IMG/VR virus record: IMGVR_UViG_2802429248_000008
Coordinates: 1-26,841 of that record
DNA: 26,841 nucleotides
Origin: a virus
Taxonomy: Duplodnaviria; Heunggongvirae; Uroviricota; Caudoviricetes
Strand: one strand, 5' to 3'
Position 1 is the first letter of the stretch; the number at the start of each line of letters is the position of its first letter. Positions 1 to 13,317 of this stretch are shown here, piece after piece. Both the position numbers and the translations under genes were made by a program. The notes below the pieces were generated by a model, which saw nothing but the letters and a program-made list of their open reading frames with translations, did no database searches and was not told the DNA's origin.

Positions 1-57
1 GATATCCGTTCAGCTTCAGAATAATGCTGTTGATTTTACGGTGACTCAGCGGGAGTG

Positions 58-83
58 AAAAGAAAAAAGGCCGCAGAGCGGCC
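58..83 (-). terminator. Rho-independent terminator-like hairpin closing the int-proximal cargo operon
   Basis: Perfect 6-bp GC stem ggccgc/gcggcc with 3-nt loop at 69-83; on the minus strand it is followed by a TTTTTTCTTTT run (plus-strand A-run 58-68). Lies about 110 bp past the stop of the 193-663 gene. Confidence 0.5.
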
Positions 84-192: not shown

Positions 193-663
193 TCAGCCAA
201 CAAATTTAGCAACAAAATACGCGACCGCCGCCGTGAAAATGGTTGTGCACACTGGCACAATAATGCCACTCCAACGCCACTTCGTATTATCATCAACCTT
301 GTCAAACCGCCGATTCATCTCATCCATAATCTTGTCAAAGCGTTTATCCATCGCTTCGGTAAGCTCACCCTTCAGGCTGTTAATGTCTGATTTGAGCTGC
401 TCTTTCAGGTTAGCTGTATCAGATTTAAGCTCACCTTTCAGATTCGCAATATCGCATTTAAGCTCACCTTTCAGATTCGCAATATCGCATTCAAGATCAC
501 CTTTCAGATGTGCTATGTCTGCTTTGAGTTCACCTTTCACCTCACCAACATCGGCTTTAGTTGAGAGGTTTGTAGTGCGTTCAGCAAGTGTCGCAAGGTC
601 GTTTCTTGTTAGCGATAAATCACCTTCGAGCCGCTCAATTCGCCTTTCAAGTTTATCTGACAT
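193..663 (-). CDS. Coiled-coil protein with tandem 11-residue repeats and a C-terminal hydrophobic anchor
   Basis: ORF track 193..756 (minus). ATG at 663-661 (MSDKLERR...) follows GGAGG on the minus strand; the track's GTG at 756 gives a longer alternative. Repeats of the form DIANLKGELK; C-terminus IIVPVCTTIFTAAVAYFVAKFVG looks like a single TM helix. Confidence 0.55.
   Translation of the reverse strand: MSDKLERRIERLEGDLSLTRNDLATLAERTTNLSTKADVGEVKGELKADIAHLKGDLECDIANLKGELKCDIANLKGELKSDTANLKEQLKSDINSLKGELTEAMDKRFDKIMDEMNRRFDKVDDNTKWRWSGIIVPVCTTIFTAAVAYFVAKFVG
358..555. repeat. Six tandem 33-bp units inside the 193-663 CDS; units at 424-456 and 457-489 are identical
   Basis: Direct reading: tttaagctcacctttcagattcgcaatatcgca occurs twice back to back, flanked by four diverged 33-bp copies. 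In frame, encoding the 11-aa repeats. Confidence 0.85.
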
Positions 664-756
664 TCCGCCTCCATTATCACCGCCTCCCTCACCGAAAGAG
701 TTGCCAATGTCCTCACGAATAAGGGTTATGCCATGCTCACTTTTAGCATACGCCAC

Positions 757-1155
757 TCAGATTCCCTCCCAAACTATATATCCTTTGTCTCTTGCCCAAC
801 AAACAACTGTGTGGGCTGTATATGTGGATGTGAAGCCGCAATAAGAACATGACACTTCATACCGAGTATTGTAGATGTTAATGGGCTCGTTCTCCTTGTG
901 TATGGGAGTGACATATTCCCAATCATTCGAATCATCATAATCATCAAGCTCAGGGTCTGTGCCGTGAACAACCGTATGTGGAATAAACAAATCTGGGCGC
1001 CCACACGAGAGACAAGAGGTTCTGGCATCTCTATCTTTGAGGAATTGAATAAATAATTTGGGCGAAATCTGTTGCAGAACCTGCAAATGCCCACGTTCAT
1101 TATCATTAAGAGACCTGTCTGCATATGGAAAATCATCAAATTTAAGAGGCTTCAT
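757..1155 (-). CDS. Hypothetical zinc-ribbon-like protein, AT-rich cargo gene
   Basis: ORF track 757..1170 (minus). Preferred ATG at 1155-1153 (MKPLKF...) with GGAG about 9 nt upstream; overlaps the integrase stop by about 14 nt. Two CxxC pairs (CLSCG, CSYCG). Stop TGA is directly followed by the GTG of the next ORF. Confidence 0.5.
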   Translation of the reverse strand: MKPLKFDDFPYADRSLNDNERGHLQVLQQISPKLFIQFLKDRDARTSCLSCGRPDLFIPHTVVHGTDPELDDYDDSNDWEYVTPIHKENEPINIYNTRYEVSCSYCGFTSTYTAHTVVCWARDKGYIVWEGI

Positions 1156-2134
1156 ATAAGGCATCTCCAAGGGGATTAAATCTCACCGCATCCTGCAAGT
1201 AATCCGGCGCAAGATGGGCATAAATCATCGTTGTCTGAATCTTTGCGTGCCCCAGAATTTTCTGGAGCGTCAGAATATTGCCGCCGTTCATCATGAAATG
1301 ACTGGCGAAGGTGTGGCGCAGCGCATGAACAGCCTGGCCGTCGGGAACATCAGATGCGACCGTTTTGATGACATCGCGAACCAATGGATAATCCAGCGTC
1401 GGAAACACCAGTTTCCCGCCCCGTATTTTGATCTTTTCAAACAGGCTTTCAGAAATAGGAACGGTACGGTTTTTGCTGTTCTTCGTTTTTGAAAAAGTGA
1501 TTCGACAATGAAGAACACGGCGCTGCTCCAGTGCCGCTACCTCGCCCCATCGCGCCCCGGTCGACAGAAGGATTTCGACAGCCAGCCGTTCATCGGGATT
1601 TTCAGCCAGTGCATCCAGCAACTGAACACATTCAGACTTACTCAGATATCCCATTTCGCGCTCGTTAACCTTCATTCCTTTAAGGCCTTGAACGGGGTTA
1701 TCGTTAAGAAAATGGCCGGATGAGATGAGTGCGGTAAACATCGCGCTTAACGCCCCAATCTCTCGATTTATGGTGCTGGGCTGTATCCCCTGCTCTATCC
1801 TGGACACACGTAGCTCGGTGAGCATCGTTGTATTAAGTTTATGCACGCACGGGTCATCCATTGCCTCACTCAAGCGCAGCAATTTAAGGCGCGTGTTATG
1901 CCCTGACTTCATTAGCTGGCCGTGGTATTTCCACCACAAGTCAATAAGCACTGACAGCGGACGGCGATCAATGGAGTTTCCTTTCCACTCATTGTTATGC
2001 TGTTGCGCCAGCACCCACCGCTCATATAAAACTGCATCCGATTTCGTTTTAAATTTTTTACGAATGCGTTTGCCTTTACGCCCCTCCGGGCGCATGTCAA
2101 GAAGATACCCTCCCGGAATTGATTTTATGCTCAT
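1142..2134 (-). CDS. int: Tyrosine site-specific integrase, P2 Int family
   Basis: ORF track 1142..2284; start set at ATG 2134-2132 (MSIKSIPGGYLLDMRPEGRKGKRIRKKF...), which resembles the P2 Int N-terminus as recalled. C-terminal catalytic box HALRHTFASHF ... IQTTMIYAHL. Sits downstream of and co-directional with the repressor. Confidence 0.9.
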   Translation of the reverse strand: MSIKSIPGGYLLDMRPEGRKGKRIRKKFKTKSDAVLYERWVLAQQHNNEWKGNSIDRRPLSVLIDLWWKYHGQLMKSGHNTRLKLLRLSEAMDDPCVHKLNTTMLTELRVSRIEQGIQPSTINREIGALSAMFTALISSGHFLNDNPVQGLKGMKVNEREMGYLSKSECVQLLDALAENPDERLAVEILLSTGARWGEVAALEQRRVLHCRITFSKTKNSKNRTVPISESLFEKIKIRGGKLVFPTLDYPLVRDVIKTVASDVPDGQAVHALRHTFASHFMMNGGNILTLQKILGHAKIQTTMIYAHLAPDYLQDAVRFNPLGDALYEAS

Positions 2135-2183: not shown

Positions 2184-2492
2184 TTAGCCGGGCTGTGTGC
2201 CAGTCTTGCGGGGTTTTTGAGAAGGCGATGTGCTTTTTGGCCCATCAGGGGAGAGAGACGGACTGATCTGCCCAGCAGCCTCATTTGTTTTTCCCGTCAT
2301 AAGCCAATTCATGTACTTAAAAAAGCGAGGGTGATTAACAATCTTGATAAGCACTTCGCCCCCTATGTTTTCAATCCGCCCCGTTTCATAACGACGCAAA
2401 GTGCCGATAGGCACATCAATCAGGCCGCAAAATTCTTCGCGCGTTAAATCCTCTGATTCACGAATCACTCTAATTTTTTCACCGATAAGCAT
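2184..2492 (-). CDS. C: Immunity repressor, XRE/Cro-C1-type HTH (P2 C-like)
   Basis: ORF track 2184..2528; ATG at 2492-2490 (MLIGEKIRVIRESEDLTREEFCGLIDVPIGTLRRYETG). HTH near the N-terminus, about 100 aa, divergent from a cox-like gene and just upstream of int, as in P2. Confidence 0.75.
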   Translation of the reverse strand: MLIGEKIRVIRESEDLTREEFCGLIDVPIGTLRRYETGRIENIGGEVLIKIVNHPRFFKYMNWLMTGKTNEAAGQISPSLSPDGPKSTSPSQKPRKTGTQPG

Positions 2493-2496
2493 TGAC

Positions 2497-3519: not shown

Positions 3520-3762
3520 ATGGACAAAGAATATAAAGCTCTTGTCAATAAAGCACTTGAGCGTTTTTATTTTCGCCTAAACACATCAGGGGCCCAGGCA
3601 GAACACGCAGCCCATGATTCATTAGCAAGGGCAATCAGAAGCCTTTATGACGTGGCTTTTTACGCTGACGATTTGGATGCAATTAACGAACTTTCCGAAC
3701 TCATCTGTGCTGCAGAATGCGGAGAACACATTGAACCGTATAAACTGGGGAATATCGTATGA
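3520..3762 (+). CDS. Hypothetical early protein
   Basis: ATG 3520 preceded by GGGTG, in frame with track ORF 3442..3762; 80 aa. Confidence 0.5.
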   Translation: MDKEYKALVNKALERFYFRLNTSGAQAEHAAHDSLARAIRSLYDVAFYADDLDAINELSELICAAECGEHIEPYKLGNIV

Positions 3763-3896
3763 GCATATTTATGTCATGGCTTGTTCTGATTATTTCGGTG
3801 TTCTGCGCTATTGGCATTATGCGAATTATTCATTCAGTGAAAAAGATTGAGCGTTTTTCTCTGACGAATAACAGCACAAATAAAACACCAGATTAA
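3759..3896 (+). CDS. Small hydrophobic protein (45 aa, one predicted TM helix)
   Basis: Below the ORF-track size cutoff. ATG 3759 overlaps the upstream stop (ATGA). Translation MSIFMSWLVLIISVFCAIGIMRIIHSVKK... with stop TAA at 3894-3896. Confidence 0.3.
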   Translation: MSIFMSWLVLIISVFCAIGIMRIIHSVKKIERFSLTNNSTNKTPD

Positions 3897-3964
3897 ATAA
3901 GAAAACGTGAAAACCATCCGAATTAGCGGAGGCATTCACACACGTAAACAACGGAGATACAAAA

Positions 3965-4375
3965 ATGAACGCAAAAGAAAAAGGCATTGTAACTGCGCTA
4001 AAAAATATATCGAAGACCGCAAACAGAGCCATTCAGGATGCAACAAATGCAGGAATGATTGGGCCTGCCACCACGGCCATGATGATAGCAAGAGTAACCG
4101 CCGAAGCAGCCGAAATTATCGAAAAACAGGATGCTGAACTAACGGTTCTCAGAACACAACCAGTCACCGGACTGGATTTGTCTAACACCGGACGCCTTAT
4201 TTACACAATTGGCTCGGAGCTACAGCAATACACCATTATCGCCGGATTACAGGATAAATACCTGATCACTCCTCACCCCATAAGGGAATCAGAAATTCTG
4301 ACAAATCTCCGCCTGATAGAGCGTTCTCACGTCGCATTCATTGATGACGCACAGCGCACCGTATTTAACGCATAG
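3965..4375 (+). CDS. Hypothetical early protein
   Basis: 136-aa ORF, ATG 3965 preceded by GGAGA. Confidence 0.55.
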   Translation: MNAKEKGIVTALKNISKTANRAIQDATNAGMIGPATTAMMIARVTAEAAEIIEKQDAELTVLRTQPVTGLDLSNTGRLIYTIGSELQQYTIIAGLQDKYLITPHPIRESEILTNLRLIERSHVAFIDDAQRTVFNA

Positions 4376-7970: not shown

Positions 7971-10793
7971 ATGACGACAGAGTACATCAGGGACTGGCAA
8001 CAACCGCGCCACGCAGTAGGGCGTGAAGGAACGGGGATCCCCGCACCTGAATCCGCGCTTTCCTCCTGGCTGGATGCCTACCGGGCAGAGAACGAGCGCC
8101 GCCAGGAAAAGGCTGATGCGGTGTTCTCCGCCACGCCACTGGGCAACCTGATTAATAAAAGCCTGGACGCACAGGAAAAACAGGACAAAACCATCACTCT
8201 GGCAGGAGAAGCCAGAAGACAGGCACGCGGCGCGGTGGATGAAGCCATGGCCTCGCTGCGCCTGCTGCCGTCCTATCTGCGCGATCCGCTTATTCGCCAC
8301 CTCTCCTTCCTGCGCAAAAAACAGGAAGCCGATCGCCGGAAAGGCAAAAAGAGCTGGCAGGCAGAACGCTATGCACGCGGAACCCTGCGCAAGATATTCG
8401 ATCGCATTAACCGTGCCGACAGTCGCTGGCTGACACCGGGTTATCGCTCCCTTGCCGGACGCGAACGCCTGGACGATTTGCTTTACCTGCCGCAGCTCAA
8501 CAAACACCAGATACAGACGCTGGCCACCATGACGGCGGCGATGTTCAGCAGCACCTTCGAAAAACTCTGCGATGGCTTTGGCGCGACTGATGGTGAGCTG
8601 ACCATGGAGGTGGCACTGAAGGCGTATCAGATGCTGGCCCGCATGGCGTTACACCTGCACACCGTGCCGCCGCATTACGAAGCGCTGACAACAGACAAAG
8701 ACCGGAGGAACGAACCGGACACGGAGCTGCTGCCGGGCGCAATCCTTCGTCTGACCTGTGCGGAATGGTGGAAACGCAAACTGTGGCTGTTACGTTGCGA
8801 GTGGCGGGAAGAACAACTCCGTGCCGCCTGTCTGGTTTCCAGAAAAACATCGCCCTATCTGAGCCAGGACGCGTTAAGCGAGTTTCGCGCACAGCGCGAG
8901 AAAACACGCGATTTTCTGAAAAGTTTCATGCTGGAAAACGAAGACGGGTTCACGATTGATCTCGAGACAGTGTATTACGCGGGAGTAAGTAACCCGGTTC
9001 ACCGTAAGGCAGAAATGATGGCCACCATGAAGGGGCTGGAACTTCTGGCCGAAGCCCGTGGCGACAAAGCGGTGTTTCTGACTGTCACCTGCCCGTCAAA
9101 ATACCACGCCACAACAGAGAACGGTCATCCGAACCCCAGATGGAACGGGGCCACCATGCGCGACTCCAGCGATTACCTAGTTAACACGTTTTTTGCGGCG
9201 GTCCGCAAAAAACTGAACCGCGACGGTCTTCGCTGGTATGGCATCCGCACGGTGGAGCCTCACCATGACGGCACTGTGCACTGGCATATGATGGTCTTTG
9301 CACATCCGGAAGAAATCGACAGCATCGTGGCCATCACCCGCGATATTGCCATTCAGGAAGACCGCCACGAGCTGGGCAATGATATTACTCCGCGCTTTAA
9401 GGTGGAGTATGTCGACGGCTCAAAAGGCACACCGACCAGCTATATCGCCACCTACATCGGAAAAAACCTGGACAGCCGCGCCGTGGATGGCATCGACCCG
9501 AAAACGGGCAAGCCACGCGTTGACCACGAAACCGGAAAATCAATGGCCGAGAGCGTGGAGCGCGCCATCGGCTGGGCGCGCCTTCACCGCGTCCGCCAGT
9601 TCCAGTTCTTTGGCATCCCCTCCCGTCAGGTGTGGCGTGAACTGCGCCGCCTTGCCAGCCAGATGGCACGCAACCCGGAAGGCCCGCAACGGCTGAAGGA
9701 TGACGCAATGGATGCGGTACTCGCTGCCGCTGATGCCGGGTGTTTTGCCTCCTACATTGAAAAACAGGGTGGCGTACTTGTTCCACGCAAGGACTACCTG
9801 ATTCGCACCGCCTACGACCTCGCAGATGAGCTGAACGATTACGGCGAACAGGGCGTACAGATTTACGGGATCTGGTCACCACTCATCGGGGAATCCTCCC
9901 GTGTGTGCACGCACCCGGATAACTGGAAGCTGGTAAGACGTAAACCGGAACAGGAAGGTAGCGCCCACGAAAATGGTTTTGACCTTCAGGGCGGCCCTGC
10001 CGCCCCTTGGACCCGTGGCAATAACTGTCCCCGTGTACAGGAAACGGACAACAACGGGACAGAACAGCCGGAAGAACGGCCAGCACCGTGGCCGCAGCTT
10101 CCTGACGGCATTGAAGTGAACGAATGGATGCGCTCACTGAAACGGCACGAACGCCGGGCGCTGATGCGTTCGCTTCGTGACAAACAGGCAAAAAACAGCA
10201 GTGATGAAATGCAGAGCTGGACACAGAGCCGCAAACAGCAGCGGCCTTTGCCTGATAACCACGAATTACTCGCTAGAGAATGGCGGGAGTCTGCTGAATC
10301 TCTCGGCCTGCATATCGGTGAACAACAAATGCAGCACCTGTTACGGGGCGGCAGTCTGTACGTTGACGGCAGCATCATTGCACCGCAGGGATTTGAAATT
10401 GTACGCAAACCGGATACCCGCCCGGACAGCCGAATCACGCAGCTCTGGCAGCGCCTGAGCCGTAATCACGGTGTAAGCAGCACGGAGATCCGCCATAACC
10501 CGGTCGCCAGCTATCTGGCACAGCTGGGGGCATCAGACCCTGAAGCCGCCGCACGCCTGGCATCCACACTTCAGCAGGACCAGAACACCATGAAAACACC
10601 CGTTACCGTGCTTTCTGACATGCTGCGCGCCATCCGCGACGCAGAGCACGCACAGAGAATCAGTGAAACCACTGAACGCGCCCACCGCAAAGCAGACCTG
10701 CTGCGGGGTGGCCTGACCAGTGGAAACAAAAAACAGACAGAAACGGGACTCACGAATCCCGTAAATGAGCAAAAAACGCGCAGCGATATATGA
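7971..10793 (+). CDS. A: Rolling-circle replication initiator (P2 gpA family, HUH endonuclease), 940 aa with a long C-terminal extension
   Basis: HUH motif HHDGTVHWHMMVFAH and paired active-site tyrosines in SYIATYIGKN, characteristic of P2 A/phiX174 gpA-type initiators. About 290 C-terminal residues are low-complexity and Gln/Arg/Glu-rich. Confidence 0.85.
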   Translation: MTTEYIRDWQQPRHAVGREGTGIPAPESALSSWLDAYRAENERRQEKADAVFSATPLGNLINKSLDAQEKQDKTITLAGEARRQARGAVDEAMASLRLLPSYLRDPLIRHLSFLRKKQEADRRKGKKSWQAERYARGTLRKIFDRINRADSRWLTPGYRSLAGRERLDDLLYLPQLNKHQIQTLATMTAAMFSSTFEKLCDGFGATDGELTMEVALKAYQMLARMALHLHTVPPHYEALTTDKDRRNEPDTELLPGAILRLTCAEWWKRKLWLLRCEWREEQLRAACLVSRKTSPYLSQDALSEFRAQREKTRDFLKSFMLENEDGFTIDLETVYYAGVSNPVHRKAEMMATMKGLELLAEARGDKAVFLTVTCPSKYHATTENGHPNPRWNGATMRDSSDYLVNTFFAAVRKKLNRDGLRWYGIRTVEPHHDGTVHWHMMVFAHPEEIDSIVAITRDIAIQEDRHELGNDITPRFKVEYVDGSKGTPTSYIATYIGKNLDSRAVDGIDPKTGKPRVDHETGKSMAESVERAIGWARLHRVRQFQFFGIPSRQVWRELRRLASQMARNPEGPQRLKDDAMDAVLAAADAGCFASYIEKQGGVLVPRKDYLIRTAYDLADELNDYGEQGVQIYGIWSPLIGESSRVCTHPDNWKLVRRKPEQEGSAHENGFDLQGGPAAPWTRGNNCPRVQETDNNGTEQPEERPAPWPQLPDGIEVNEWMRSLKRHERRALMRSLRDKQAKNSSDEMQSWTQSRKQQRPLPDNHELLAREWRESAESLGLHIGEQQMQHLLRGGSLYVDGSIIAPQGFEIVRKPDTRPDSRITQLWQRLSRNHGVSSTEIRHNPVASYLAQLGASDPEAAARLASTLQQDQNTMKTPVTVLSDMLRAIRDAEHAQRISETTERAHRKADLLRGGLTSGNKKQTETGLTNPVNEQKTRSDI

Positions 10794-10869: not shown

Positions 10870-11829
10870 ATGAAAATTTGTATCGACGACGGCTCCACCA
10901 ACATCAAGCTGGCATGGACTGAGAACAGCGAACGCCGCAACGCCATCAGCCCGAACAGCTTCAAGTCGGAATGGTCTGCGCCGTTCGGTGGCTCGCAGCC
11001 TGCGAACTACATGCTTGATGGCGTGCGCTATGGTTTTGATCCGGTCAGCGATCGCTTTGTCCAGACGACCGACACGCAATACCAGTACAGCGATGTGAAT
11101 GTAATCGCCATTCACCACGCGCTGGTCAAATCAGGCATCACACCACAGGAGGTGGATGTGGTTGTCACCCTGCCACTGAGCGAGTATTTCGACACAAACG
11201 CACAGCCGGACATGGCCAACATCAACCGCAAAAAAGCGAACGTTATGCGCCCGGTGGAGTACCAGAACGGTGAGGCATTCACTATCCGTAACGTGCGGGT
11301 TATGCCTGAATCCATTCCGGCTGGCTTTAAAGCACTGGCTGACATGAGTCCGTTTGAATCCCTGCTGATTGTGGATTTAGGCGGAACCACGCTGGATGTG
11401 GCAAAGGTTCAGGGACAACTGGCAGGTATCAGCCAGGTGTTTTGCGATCCACACGTAGGCGTTTCCCTGATGGCCGATGCCGTACTGTCGGTGATGGCCA
11501 CTAACGGTATGCGTACCAGTCACCACATCGCCAATACCATTATCGAACATCGCCATGATGAAGCCTGGCTGCGCCAGCACATCCACAATGACGCGCATTA
11601 CAACAGCCTGATGGCGGTTATTCGTGAAAAGGAAGAAACACTGAAACAACGCGTGATCCGCGCGCTGGCGGGTTTTTCGGGTTACGGGCGGGTGATGGTT
11701 GTCGGTGGAGGGGCGGAGATTGTGGCACCCGCTATCCGCGAAGCCTGCGGAGTTAATGCGACTTTCATCGCGGACGGGGTGCCACAGTTTGCTCTGGTTA
11801 ATGGGCTGTACGCAATGGACAAGGAGTAA
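10870..11829 (+). CDS. parM: ParM/StbA-family actin-like partition ATPase
   Basis: 319 aa. N-terminal MKICIDDGSTNIKLAW, plus HHAL, NRKKAN, VMPESIPAG, LLIVDLGGTTLD, VGGGAEI and LVNGLY, co-linear with plasmid R1 ParM as I recall it. Confidence 0.88.
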   Translation: MKICIDDGSTNIKLAWTENSERRNAISPNSFKSEWSAPFGGSQPANYMLDGVRYGFDPVSDRFVQTTDTQYQYSDVNVIAIHHALVKSGITPQEVDVVVTLPLSEYFDTNAQPDMANINRKKANVMRPVEYQNGEAFTIRNVRVMPESIPAGFKALADMSPFESLLIVDLGGTTLDVAKVQGQLAGISQVFCDPHVGVSLMADAVLSVMATNGMRTSHHIANTIIEHRHDEAWLRQHIHNDAHYNSLMAVIREKEETLKQRVIRALAGFSGYGRVMVVGGGAEIVAPAIREACGVNATFIADGVPQFALVNGLYAMDKE

Positions 11830-11833
11830 ACCA

Positions 11834-12145
11834 ATGACGACACCAACCAGACGGATAAGTTTCTATCTGAAGCCCGCCGCCGTCAAGAACGAAGGCGAAG
11901 CATGCGCCTGGCTGGACAGCCTTACACCAGAAGCCCGCAAAAGCGGCCAACGCGTGGCTTTTCTGGCCGGGCTGGCACTTCTGAAAATGAATCCGGCAGA
12001 GGCTTACCGACTGGCTGCATGGGCTGACGATGAGGCGTTATCGGTGACACAAACCAGGACAGAACGCCCCGTGTCACAGCCAGTACCAACCGCACAGATA
12101 ACCAGTCAGATGGCAGGGAATATCCGGGCATTATTTCCTGAATGA
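11834..12145 (+). CDS. parR: ParR-like centromere-binding adaptor
   Basis: 103 aa, AAGGAG RBS, starts 4 nt after the parM stop. RRISFYLKP...DSLTPEARKSGQRVAFLAGLALLKMNP parallels the R1 ParR N-terminal region (RTIAFKLNP...DSIPQGERSRLNRAALTAGLALY) from memory. Confidence 0.7.
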   Translation: MTTPTRRISFYLKPAAVKNEGEACAWLDSLTPEARKSGQRVAFLAGLALLKMNPAEAYRLAAWADDEALSVTQTRTERPVSQPVPTAQITSQMAGNIRALFPE

Positions 12146-12205
12146 CGAATTTGACGGCTTTTAATTTTATCGGGGTGCACTGTCGCCCCGCACGAGGAAA
12201 ACACG

Positions 12206-12730
12206 ATGAAAAAATACGAATACATGCTAATGAAAGAAGCACTGCGGGCTGGTCTGGCTCCCTGTCCTGTATCCGTAGAAGCTGTTGTTGGGAACACGAT
12301 TTTCCGAACGCTGCGAAATCGCGTATCCGTGAAGATGATTCACCAACCACCCAAATCTACCAGCATGATCTATCTGCCGCTGCCCGAGGCTATCAAACTT
12401 ATGCGTTCGCTGAAATTTGCGATTTGGATGCAGACACAGCTCAACAAAGCGGTGCAAAACACCTTCGTTAAGAAACTGATGCCGGAGCTTGCTGCCAGAT
12501 GTGCAAAATGTACCAGACCAGCACTTCAATTTGATCTGTCATTGATTCAACAAGCTACGGAGGCAGAACTGTACCGCCTGTCACCTCTCCATGATGCTCA
12601 CACGGAAGCCTCAGAAATGTTCCGGCTCATGTTTCAATTTAATTTTGCCGTTCGACGCACACGCGTTCAGGTCAATCGCATGATGCAGGCGCAGGAAGAG
12701 CTGACGCAACACAAAGGAGGCAACCAGTGA
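12206..12730 (+). CDS. Hypothetical protein (174 aa), hotspot cargo
   Basis: ATG 12206 with GAGGAAAA RBS; stop overlaps the next gene's GTG start (GTGA). No recognisable motif. Confidence 0.5.
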   Translation: MKKYEYMLMKEALRAGLAPCPVSVEAVVGNTIFRTLRNRVSVKMIHQPPKSTSMIYLPLPEAIKLMRSLKFAIWMQTQLNKAVQNTFVKKLMPELAARCAKCTRPALQFDLSLIQQATEAELYRLSPLHDAHTEASEMFRLMFQFNFAVRRTRVQVNRMMQAQEELTQHKGGNQ

Positions 12731-13317
12731 GCAAGATTGACTATCAGGCATTACGCGAACGTTATTCACCTGCGCCAGTACCGAAATGCCCTATTTGCGG
12801 CGAGGAAATGTCAATTCAGCGAATATCTGGAGCACAGGTTGTTTATGCCTGCTCCGGTTATGGTGATGATGGAGATTTCAAAATTGGTCGAACTCTTGCC
12901 GACGAACATTATGAAAAATCACGCGTAACAGTGTTGGATGTCGGGGATCCTGAAGTATTGGCGCTACTTGATTGGCTGGAAACTAAAGACAACCGAATCG
13001 CTGAACTGGAAAAAATCGCCACTGACTATGCACTTAAATTCCAGAAAGCACAGGACGCATTAAAGTATGCCGCTTTGCTGCATAGCCGGACGGCGCAACA
13101 AACCAATAATTTTGCAGTATCGCTTCCGGACATAAGCGAATATTTCATTAATGACGTATTTCAGCCCTTGCGATACGAGCGGGATGTTGAAAGAGCCATC
13201 ATAAAGGCTGGCGGAAAAGCATTGTGGCAGGAGAAACACGAGGACAGAACGCATCAGTCCTGCGATGTAAATTGTGGATGGTTTAGCCCACTGACGACAG
13301 ATAAAAATAACACCTGA
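12727..13317 (+). CDS. Hypothetical protein with N-terminal zinc-ribbon-like motif and central coiled-coil (196 aa)
   Basis: GTG 12727 with AAGGAGG 9 nt upstream. CPICGEEM...YACSGYG cysteine cluster; coiled-coil segment LALLDWLETKDNRIAELEKIATDYALKFQKAQDALKYAALL; N-terminal IDYQALRE is reminiscent of Ead/Ea22-like prophage proteins (weak recollection). Confidence 0.5.
   Translation: MSKIDYQALRERYSPAPVPKCPICGEEMSIQRISGAQVVYACSGYGDDGDFKIGRTLADEHYEKSRVTVLDVGDPEVLALLDWLETKDNRIAELEKIATDYALKFQKAQDALKYAALLHSRTAQQTNNFAVSLPDISEYFINDVFQPLRYERDVERAIIKAGGKALWQEKHEDRTHQSCDVNCGWFSPLTTDKNNT

Follow-up and report, generated by a model that had tools for sequence, protein, structure and literature searches.

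Known systems comparable to the module described here include lambda cI-rexA-rexB, Vibrio phage K139 glo, and P2 old/tin/fun. In P2-like phages, the interval between the integrase gene (int) and the attachment site (att) is a minor defence hotspot, holding 3% of their recognised defence systems (Nucleic Acids Res 2026, PMC13586616). An earlier preprint noted that the interval from a tail gene to CI forms a third hotspot (bioRxiv 10.1101/2024.10.15.618418). The DNA analysed here, referred to as the window, is the 26,841-nucleotide stretch of IMG/VR virus record IMGVR_UViG_2802429248_000008 (Caudoviricetes). It carries two open reading frames (ORFs) between int and att, termed ORF-A and ORF-B and together the A-B pair. 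The pair lies inside an att-delimited prophage downstream of int, at a position whose content varies among close relatives, as is expected of hotspot cargo. Judged by the placements described below, A-B is an accessory cassette of two genes, self-contained and horizontally mobile, that the phage genome carries between int and attP.

A P2-like prophage has its lysogeny end in the leftmost 2.6 kb of the window, with the minus-strand order C repressor, int, ORF-A, and ORF-B. The C-type immunity repressor gene (2184-2495, minus strand) encodes a helix-turn-helix (HTH) protein (Pfam HTH_3; phrog_147, 3e-30) and opens the presumed lysogenic operon C-int-A-B. The int gene (1142-2134, minus strand) encodes the tyrosine integrase of a P2-like phage (Pfam Int_N, 2e-28, and Phage_integrase, 9e-20; phrog_1). 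ORF-A (757-1155, minus strand) encodes a soluble protein of 132 amino acids with a zinc-ribbon-like four-cysteine pattern (CxxC...CxxCG) and falls in PHROG family 4293. ORF-B (193-756, minus strand) encodes 187 amino acids that comprise, in order, an N-terminal peptide (N-peptide, residues 1-24), a Gly-rich linker, a LERRIERLEGD helix, a LSTKAD beta-layer motif, a hendecad coiled coil, and a C-terminal membrane anchor. The same C-int-A-B gene order is found in annotated E. coli lysogens. A megablast search of positions 1-2300 against phage records returned a single 8% match, located within int.

The start and stop codons of these genes are closely interlocked. The ATG of ORF-A (1155-1153) lies 14 nucleotides within int, whose TAA is at 1144-1142. 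ORF-B begins with a GTG (756-754) with no gap after the TGA of ORF-A, and a Shine-Dalgarno sequence, GGGAGGG, is located 8 nucleotides ahead of this GTG. Three diverged lineages have A and B in one reading frame, with a single stop followed by GTG (TGA GTG or TAA GTG). Other lineages (loci L002 and L005) have ATGA-type overlaps, with A and B in different frames. The GC content is 43.1% for positions 84-1141 and 42.3% for positions 750-1170, compared with 53.2% for the whole window, which places the region in the lowest 1-2% of equal-sized windows. A first-pass annotation of this DNA, made from the sequence alone, had described two same-strand ORFs downstream of int, the first with a start that overlaps the int stop, and an AT-rich stretch at 750-1170. 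Each of these features is present as described, and the overlapping start is further marked by the sequence MKPLKFDD, with which every ORF-A homologue begins.

A terminator scan found no minus-strand terminator-like site between positions 2700 and 84, the interval from C to the att core. In a transcriptome study of a P2-like Salmonella prophage, the genes for repressor and integrase were found to be transcribed under every condition tested (10.1101/787010). Since the genes overlap, no terminator-like site precedes the att core, and the pair recurs in repressor operons, the arrangement points to expression of A-B in the lysogen, driven by the C promoter.

The prophage boundary was set by aligning the window with the attL of a lysogen, an empty site (attB), and the attR of the same lysogen. 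The att core common to attL, attB, and attR is GAAAGAAAAAAGGCCGCAGAGCGGCC, at window positions 57-83, and is identical in all three. Host DNA lies to the left of the core. Divergence from attB begins at base 84, and phage DNA extends from there on. With the core at 57-83 and phage DNA from base 84, both ORFs are placed on the phage side, and ORF-A and ORF-B are, by this alignment, phage DNA inside the prophage. The alternative in which the two ORFs are host genes flanking attL, with the boundary between 1142 and int, is ruled out by the same attL/attB/attR alignment, and the earlier assignment of the ORFs to the phage stands.

The attL copy of the core (57-83, minus strand) has the same sequence as the terminator of the host gene ihfA, GGCCGCTCTGCGGCC followed by a T-run, and is present at both prophage ends. 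On the minus strand it forms a terminator-like hairpin with a stem at 83-69 that contains 6 G-C pairs, followed by TTTTTTCTTT. The folding energy of the hairpin is -13.4 kcal/mol (z = -3.6). The hairpin at 58-83 had first been read as the terminator that ends the operon. A terminator-like hairpin is indeed present there, but it is not specific to the operon, being the att core that copies the ihfA terminator. A promoter-like site on the minus strand, 61..33, overlaps the core.

The phage arm of att (P' arm, 84-192) is 109 bp in length with a GC content of 34.9%. It contains a tandem pair of 19-bp repeats, at 95-113 and at 114-132, and each repeat has one match to the integration host factor (IHF) consensus WATCAANNNNTTR. 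These two matches, at 99-111 and 118-130, are the only ones in the whole 26.8-kb window. The tandem IHF matches in the phage att arm sit beside the gene for IHF-alpha.

Fifteen complete E. coli genomes contain DNA that is 94-97% identical to at least 80% of positions 1-2300. The insertion is located between btuC and ihfA in those lysogens whose flanks were read. The order int-A-B is also present in a Klebsiella relative assembled as a separate 32-kb record, as would be expected if phage DNA carries the pair along. The first-pass annotation had also raised the question of whether int directly adjoins attL in related P2-like prophages. No such arrangement was seen in any of the sibling prophages examined at the same att site, and this is a caveat to the first-pass interpretation.

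The association between the two genes was surveyed by scanning 22 loci, in addition to the window, with sequence profiles; a broad alignment (A4) was too diverse to be used for scanning loci. The order int, A, B is found in 21 of the 22 scanned loci and in the window, with the start of B directly after or overlapping the stop of A. The single exception (L015) is a contig that ends 16 bases past A. Distant A alleles (117-166 amino acids) are each followed by a B-like protein of 109-145 amino acids. These distant B-like proteins share a common plan composed of an N-peptide, a Gly run, an LExRVxxLE helix, an ATKxD motif, and a C-terminal anchor.

The pair can be sorted into several layouts based on its neighbours. 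The window has the layout C-int-A-B-att, as do prophages of E. coli, Klebsiella, and Salmonella. The layout C-A-B-int is found in P2-like prophages of Citrobacter braakii and Raoultella. In a 48-kb non-P2, lambdoid-type Enterobacter phage (ENT1), the pair is directly behind the repressor, in the layout cI(HTH+S24)-A-B. It is also found at the host junction of another prophage type, beside tail-fibre genes, and alone in a Rahnella chromosome. These last three settings are outside P2-like elements, and the pair is therefore independent of P2 functions. In a Raoultella-type P2-like element (L032, 3678-6780), the order is C, a Flk_N-domain protein, a DUF8087 protein, A, B, and int. This operon is enlarged, and further cargo can thus stack in the same transcription unit.

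The content of the position differs among otherwise closely related prophages. In the window and in the prophages of O103:H2 12009 and SE11, which occupy the same att site, the Int proteins are 98-99% identical and the A proteins only 24-28% identical. Homology between the diverged A alleles is nevertheless retained (hhalign, 98.8%). After the Gly linker, the window and O103:H2 versions of B are 98% identical, but their N-peptides are only 23% identical. The core of B is thus nearly identical where A and the N-peptide are diverged, and the unit of exchange is therefore A plus the N-peptide of B. In O26:H11, an unrelated 131-amino-acid gene occupies the same slot. The phage att arm is common to 306 E. 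coli genomes, and this cargo type is present in 14 of the 306. The moron-type reading given to the pair by the first-pass annotation fits with its low GC content, with the swapping of alleles beside Int proteins of 98-99% identity, and with the report of an int-att defence hotspot (PMC13586616).

ORF-A belongs to a rare family. At 90% identity it forms 9 clusters, and a profile search of 1.8 billion proteins returned 76 representatives at 50% identity. No relatives of ORF-A were found in GTDB species representatives or in plasmid records. Across 42 diverse members, with a mean column identity of 28%, residues C48, C51, C103, C106, G107, and W120 are invariant. Both CxxC knuckles expected of a zinc ribbon are therefore conserved, and the earlier description of ORF-A as zinc-ribbon-like agrees with the invariance of its four cysteines. 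The AlphaFold2 (AF2) model has a predicted local distance difference test (pLDDT) score of 81 and consists of two helices, a small sheet, and a C-terminal helix, with the CxxC pairs flanking beta strands. ORF-A matches PHROG 4293, a family without an assigned function, at 1.6e-29. A Foldseek search of the PDB gave only matches with E ≥ 0.56 and thus no significant relative. Against BFVD, the best match had an E-value of 6.7e-3, and the remaining matches were weak and mostly TFIIS-like ribbons. A sequence search of the PDB returned nothing significant.

The AF2 monomer of ORF-B is disordered at residues 1-31 (pLDDT < 50), ending in the Gly run, and so no folded N-terminal head is predicted. It is followed by helices at residues 32-61 and 67-152 and a terminal helix at 156-186. 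The break between the first two helices, at 62-66, falls exactly at L64-S65-T66-K67-A68-D69. In alignment A3, residues T66, K67, and D69 are invariant, and the LERRIERLEGD helix is strongly conserved. A 33-nucleotide tandem repeat with 4.2 copies (402-539, minus strand; Tandem Repeats Finder) encodes 11-amino-acid units of DIANLKGELKx. The number of repeats varies by strain, even among alleles that are nearly identical, and ORF-B is 187 amino acids in the window, 176 in E. coli TUM1880, and 123-192 among close homologues. The best Kyte-Doolittle 19-mer has a score of 2.14 and spans residues 165-183, the predicted membrane anchor. The 11-amino-acid repeats, the long modelled helix, and this hydrophobic 19-mer are consistent with the coiled-coil, membrane-anchored protein that had been predicted at first reading.

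In the DUF1640 membrane proteins of prokaryotes and mitochondria, the stalk opens with a beta-layer motif, [aliphatic]-A-T-K-x-[DE] (Hartmann et al., eLife 2016, PMC4786415). The LSTKAD of ORF-B fits this motif. The Pfam score of the window protein against CCDC90-like (PF07798) is 28.1 bits and does not reach the cutoff of 33.5. Many close homologues of ORF-B have a precomputed PF07798 match, and NCBI names near-identical proteins as DUF1640 or CCDC90 family. Because the score is below the cutoff, ORF-B is described here as DUF1640-like and is not filed as a member of the family. ORF-B also shows similarity to Borrelia Bdr proteins (tblastn, 3e-8; hhalign, 94.8%, E = 5e-8, anchor included), although part of this signal is due to coiled-coil composition. 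Bdr proteins are inner-membrane proteins of Borrelia cp32 prophages that are made during infection and have no assigned function so far (PMC10016077). DUF1640, with human MCUR1 and CCDC90B, and Borrelia Bdr are probably related. In PADLOC, ORF-B gives only coiled-coil noise, with matches to such segments of ZorA, LmuB, and LeoBC that are no stronger than about 1e-5.

ORF-B has an alternative internal start at M32 (ATG at 663) with its own GGAGG. The frame is open from the stop of A in every lineage, with a chance of 0.07-0.17 in each, across six diverged lineages. One ORF-B homologue lacks M32 altogether. Given the open upstream frame in six lineages and the homologue without M32, the long form of ORF-B is probably made. 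A second, shorter isoform is possible.

The reading that we favour, though at somewhat less than even confidence, is that A-B is a lysogen-expressed exclusion or abortive-infection module in which B, a tail-anchored stalk, presents the zinc-ribbon protein A by way of the N-peptide. The pair would be made at a low constitutive level in the lysogen as the tail of the C-int transcript. Translation would be coupled through the overlap between the int stop and the A start and through the abutting A stop and B start, and transcription would end at the att-core hairpin. B would be a tail-anchored inner-membrane protein with a cytoplasmic DUF1640-type stalk, probably trimeric and of variable length. 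The flexible N-terminal peptide behind the Gly linker would dock soluble A, which would act as the specificity subunit. The complex would most likely protect the lysogen from other phages, either by a block to entry at the membrane or by abortive infection through B. The sequences show the location in phage DNA, the strict pairing, the gene overlaps, the architecture of the proteins, the swapping of alleles, and the placement in lysogenic operons; transcription in lysogens, contact between A and B, trimerisation, and the antiviral role are what we infer.

Several points weigh against this proposal. ORF-A has no PADLOC match, no informative Pfam or NCBIfam match, and no fold relative. Because it matches no defence family or fold, the antiviral role is argued from position and evolutionary pattern. 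The linkage between A and the N-peptide could reflect recombination at the repetitive Gly-codon DNA and not physical contact. The Prokaryotic Genome Annotation Pipeline (PGAP) often starts ORF-B at M32, where there is a strong Shine-Dalgarno sequence, and some or all of the ORF-B product may lack the N-peptide. Pore formation is also not what would readily be expected of a tail-anchored protein with a single membrane pass. Finally, the promoter scan found no internal promoter, a result that is uninformative because the same scan also missed Pc.

A more specific version of the favoured proposal, which we regard as doubtful, is that A-B represents a previously unrecognised class of prophage immunity. 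A trimeric, tail-anchored DUF1640 stalk, with a length set by the gain and loss of 11-amino-acid repeats, would use a short docking peptide to keep a zinc-ribbon sensor, itself exchangeable, at a fixed distance below the inner membrane. The complex would detect or block incoming phage genomes. If true, this would be the first function for bacterial DUF1640/Bdr-type proteins, and the pair would be a tractable E. coli model of the MCUR1/CCDC90B architecture.

The first alternative is that the pair is a lysogenic-conversion factor that alters host physiology, with B as a membrane-tethered scaffold like MCUR1/CCDC90B or Borrelia Bdr and without an antiphage role. The DUF1640/CCDC90-like character of B, in its Pfam score and in the NCBI names of near-identical proteins, is compatible with such a scaffold, as is its resemblance to the infection-expressed Bdr proteins. 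Carriers of the pair include Shiga toxin-producing and other pathogenic E. coli. However, the rapid swapping of cassettes among otherwise identical phages and the location in a defence hotspot are more typical of conflict systems, and no secretion signal or virulence-family match was found (Pfam, NCBIfam). This alternative is considered unlikely.

We find it quite unlikely that A-B is an addiction, or toxin-antitoxin-like, stabiliser of the prophage. In this scheme, B would damage membranes as a toxin and A would be the antidote in the cytoplasm, or the two roles would be exchanged, and the pair would penalise loss of the prophage instead of excluding other phages. The genes are small and tightly coupled and lie at the edge of a mobile element, and the pair is also found alone in a chromosome. 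B has weak holin- and spanin-like PHROG matches, and a Hok/Gef toxin gene is present across att in the TUM1880 lysogen. On the other hand, searches of Pfam, NCBIfam, and PADLOC matched no toxin-antitoxin family. Small membrane toxins do not typically have a coiled-coil stalk of some 120 residues and a variable number of repeats, and the extreme diversification of A beside the nearly invariant core of B fits target recognition better than it fits an antidote.

A role in the phage life cycle, in integration and excision or in the choice between lysis and lysogeny, was also considered. It could operate by modulation of Int or by a tether between the genome and the membrane, and it would account for the overlap of A with the 3' end of int and for the placement of the pair, in P2-like phages, always within the immunity/integration operon. 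It is nevertheless very unlikely. Siblings with Int proteins of 98-99% identity carry very different alleles or an unrelated gene, and the pair also occurs with no integrase nearby and behind cI in a lambdoid-type phage. Classical P2, judged by its established map, is not known to carry an A-B pair. Finally, it is barely credible that A and B form one protein by stop-codon read-through, a zinc-ribbon head fused to a DUF1640 stalk, since the shared frame with a single stop in three diverged lineages, and the N-terminal head that eukaryotic DUF1640 proteins have and B lacks, are set against the different frames in L002 and L005, the poor read-through of TAA, the Shine-Dalgarno sequence ahead of the GTG, and the absence of any natural fusion (0 of 76 family representatives exceed 180 amino acids).

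The host flank of the window (1-56) is the sequence upstream of btuC, with the btuC ATG immediately to the left of base 1, and it aligns with E. coli lysogens and empty sites. Compared with the corresponding region of all 5424 matching E. coli genomes, its identity is only about 85% (43/56), while the prophage is 94-97% identical to E. coli prophages. Judged by this flank, the window prophage probably has its host in a different lineage of Escherichia or of the enterobacteria. A search of GTDB representatives for a 31-mer of the flank gave no exact match. In lysogens, it would be the phage cargo operon and not ihfA from which transcription reads through into btuCED. A 2026 survey counts the BtuC permease among the auxiliary metabolic genes that P2-like viruses carry (PMC13100340). 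Because phages of the type in the window integrate right beside btuC, this listing may be an overshoot of the prophage boundary and not real cargo. Caution is warranted in this respect, as the att core is the ihfA terminator, 57-83 nucleotides upstream of btuC, and automated prophage boundaries can wrongly take in btuC.

At the other prophage end, which lies beyond the window, the Hok/Gef toxin gene of E. coli TUM1880 is located between ogr and attR (L004, 3248-3388). With Hok/Gef on the attR side and A-B on the attL side, both flanks of attP carry cargo in this phage group.

Accessory genes are also found elsewhere in the window. Positions 10870-13317 correspond to the classical P2 hotspot, which extends from gpA (7971-10793) to the portal gene, and they hold a plasmid-type segregation pair. 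This pair is composed of ParM/StbA (10870-11829; Pfam, 7.7e-82) and a StbB-like protein (within 11699-12145; PF10784, 4e-24). An Ead/Ea22-like protein is encoded at 12727-13317. None of these three proteins has a PADLOC match. For a P2-like phage, having a partition system is a hint of plasmid-like maintenance. A second low-GC patch (3700-4000, 37% GC) is located among the early genes and overlaps small ORFs, with no Pfam match nearby.

It was not until 2026 that the cargo location of A-B was reported as a minor defence hotspot, and the pair is outside current defence catalogues. The bacterial members of DUF1640 have so far had no known function. The strict pairing, translational coupling, and co-swapping of A with the N-peptide provide concrete, falsifiable hypotheses on how DUF1640-type stalks are used in bacteria. 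Sequenced E. coli strains contain at least four different allele pairs of the cassette, which is about 1 kb in length and moves from one phage type to another.

The locus can be compared with known systems at the level of each protein, of the pair, and of its position. ORF-A resembles zinc-ribbon proteins of the TFIIS or NrdR type in having two CxxC pairs that flank beta strands, and its weak Foldseek matches are mostly TFIIS-like. ORF-B shares with DUF1640/CCDC90 proteins (PF07798; human MCUR1 and CCDC90B) a long stalk that opens with the beta-layer motif, in the form [aliphatic]-[A/S]-T-K-x-[D/E], as well as the C-terminal anchor. It differs from them in that a 31-residue disordered peptide takes the place of the folded N-terminal head of the eukaryotic proteins, and in that it is always paired with a separate zinc-ribbon gene. 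Like ORF-B, the Bdr proteins of Borrelia cp32 prophages and linear plasmids are prophage- or plasmid-borne and have variable tandem repeats and a C-terminal hydrophobic anchor. However, their identity to ORF-B is only 26-30%, partly in low-complexity coiled coil, and no A-like gene was seen beside the one bdr locus examined.

As a two-gene module, A-B can be compared with lambda rexA-rexB. Both are located with the repressor in a lysogenic operon, and each has one predicted cytoplasmic and one membrane protein; the ENT1 pair is exactly behind a cI-type repressor. Unlike the polytopic membrane protein of the Rex system, ORF-B is a single-pass tail-anchored coiled coil. No Rex family was among the Pfam matches at E up to 1, and there is no sequence relation to RexA or RexB. 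Searches of the literature on DUF1640/CCDC90 with phage or prophage, and on two-gene defence systems of a zinc ribbon and a coiled coil, found no functional study and no description of this cassette. With the int-att hotspot of P2-like phages, the pair shares its position inside an att-delimited element downstream of int and its variable content. The hotspot surveys count systems recognised by DefenseFinder or PADLOC, but A-B is recognised by neither PADLOC nor Pfam, and its comparison with PADLOC-DB 2.0 gave no significant defence-system match. Set beside these systems, A-B is a new and uncharacterised example of prophage accessory cargo in a recognised hotspot.

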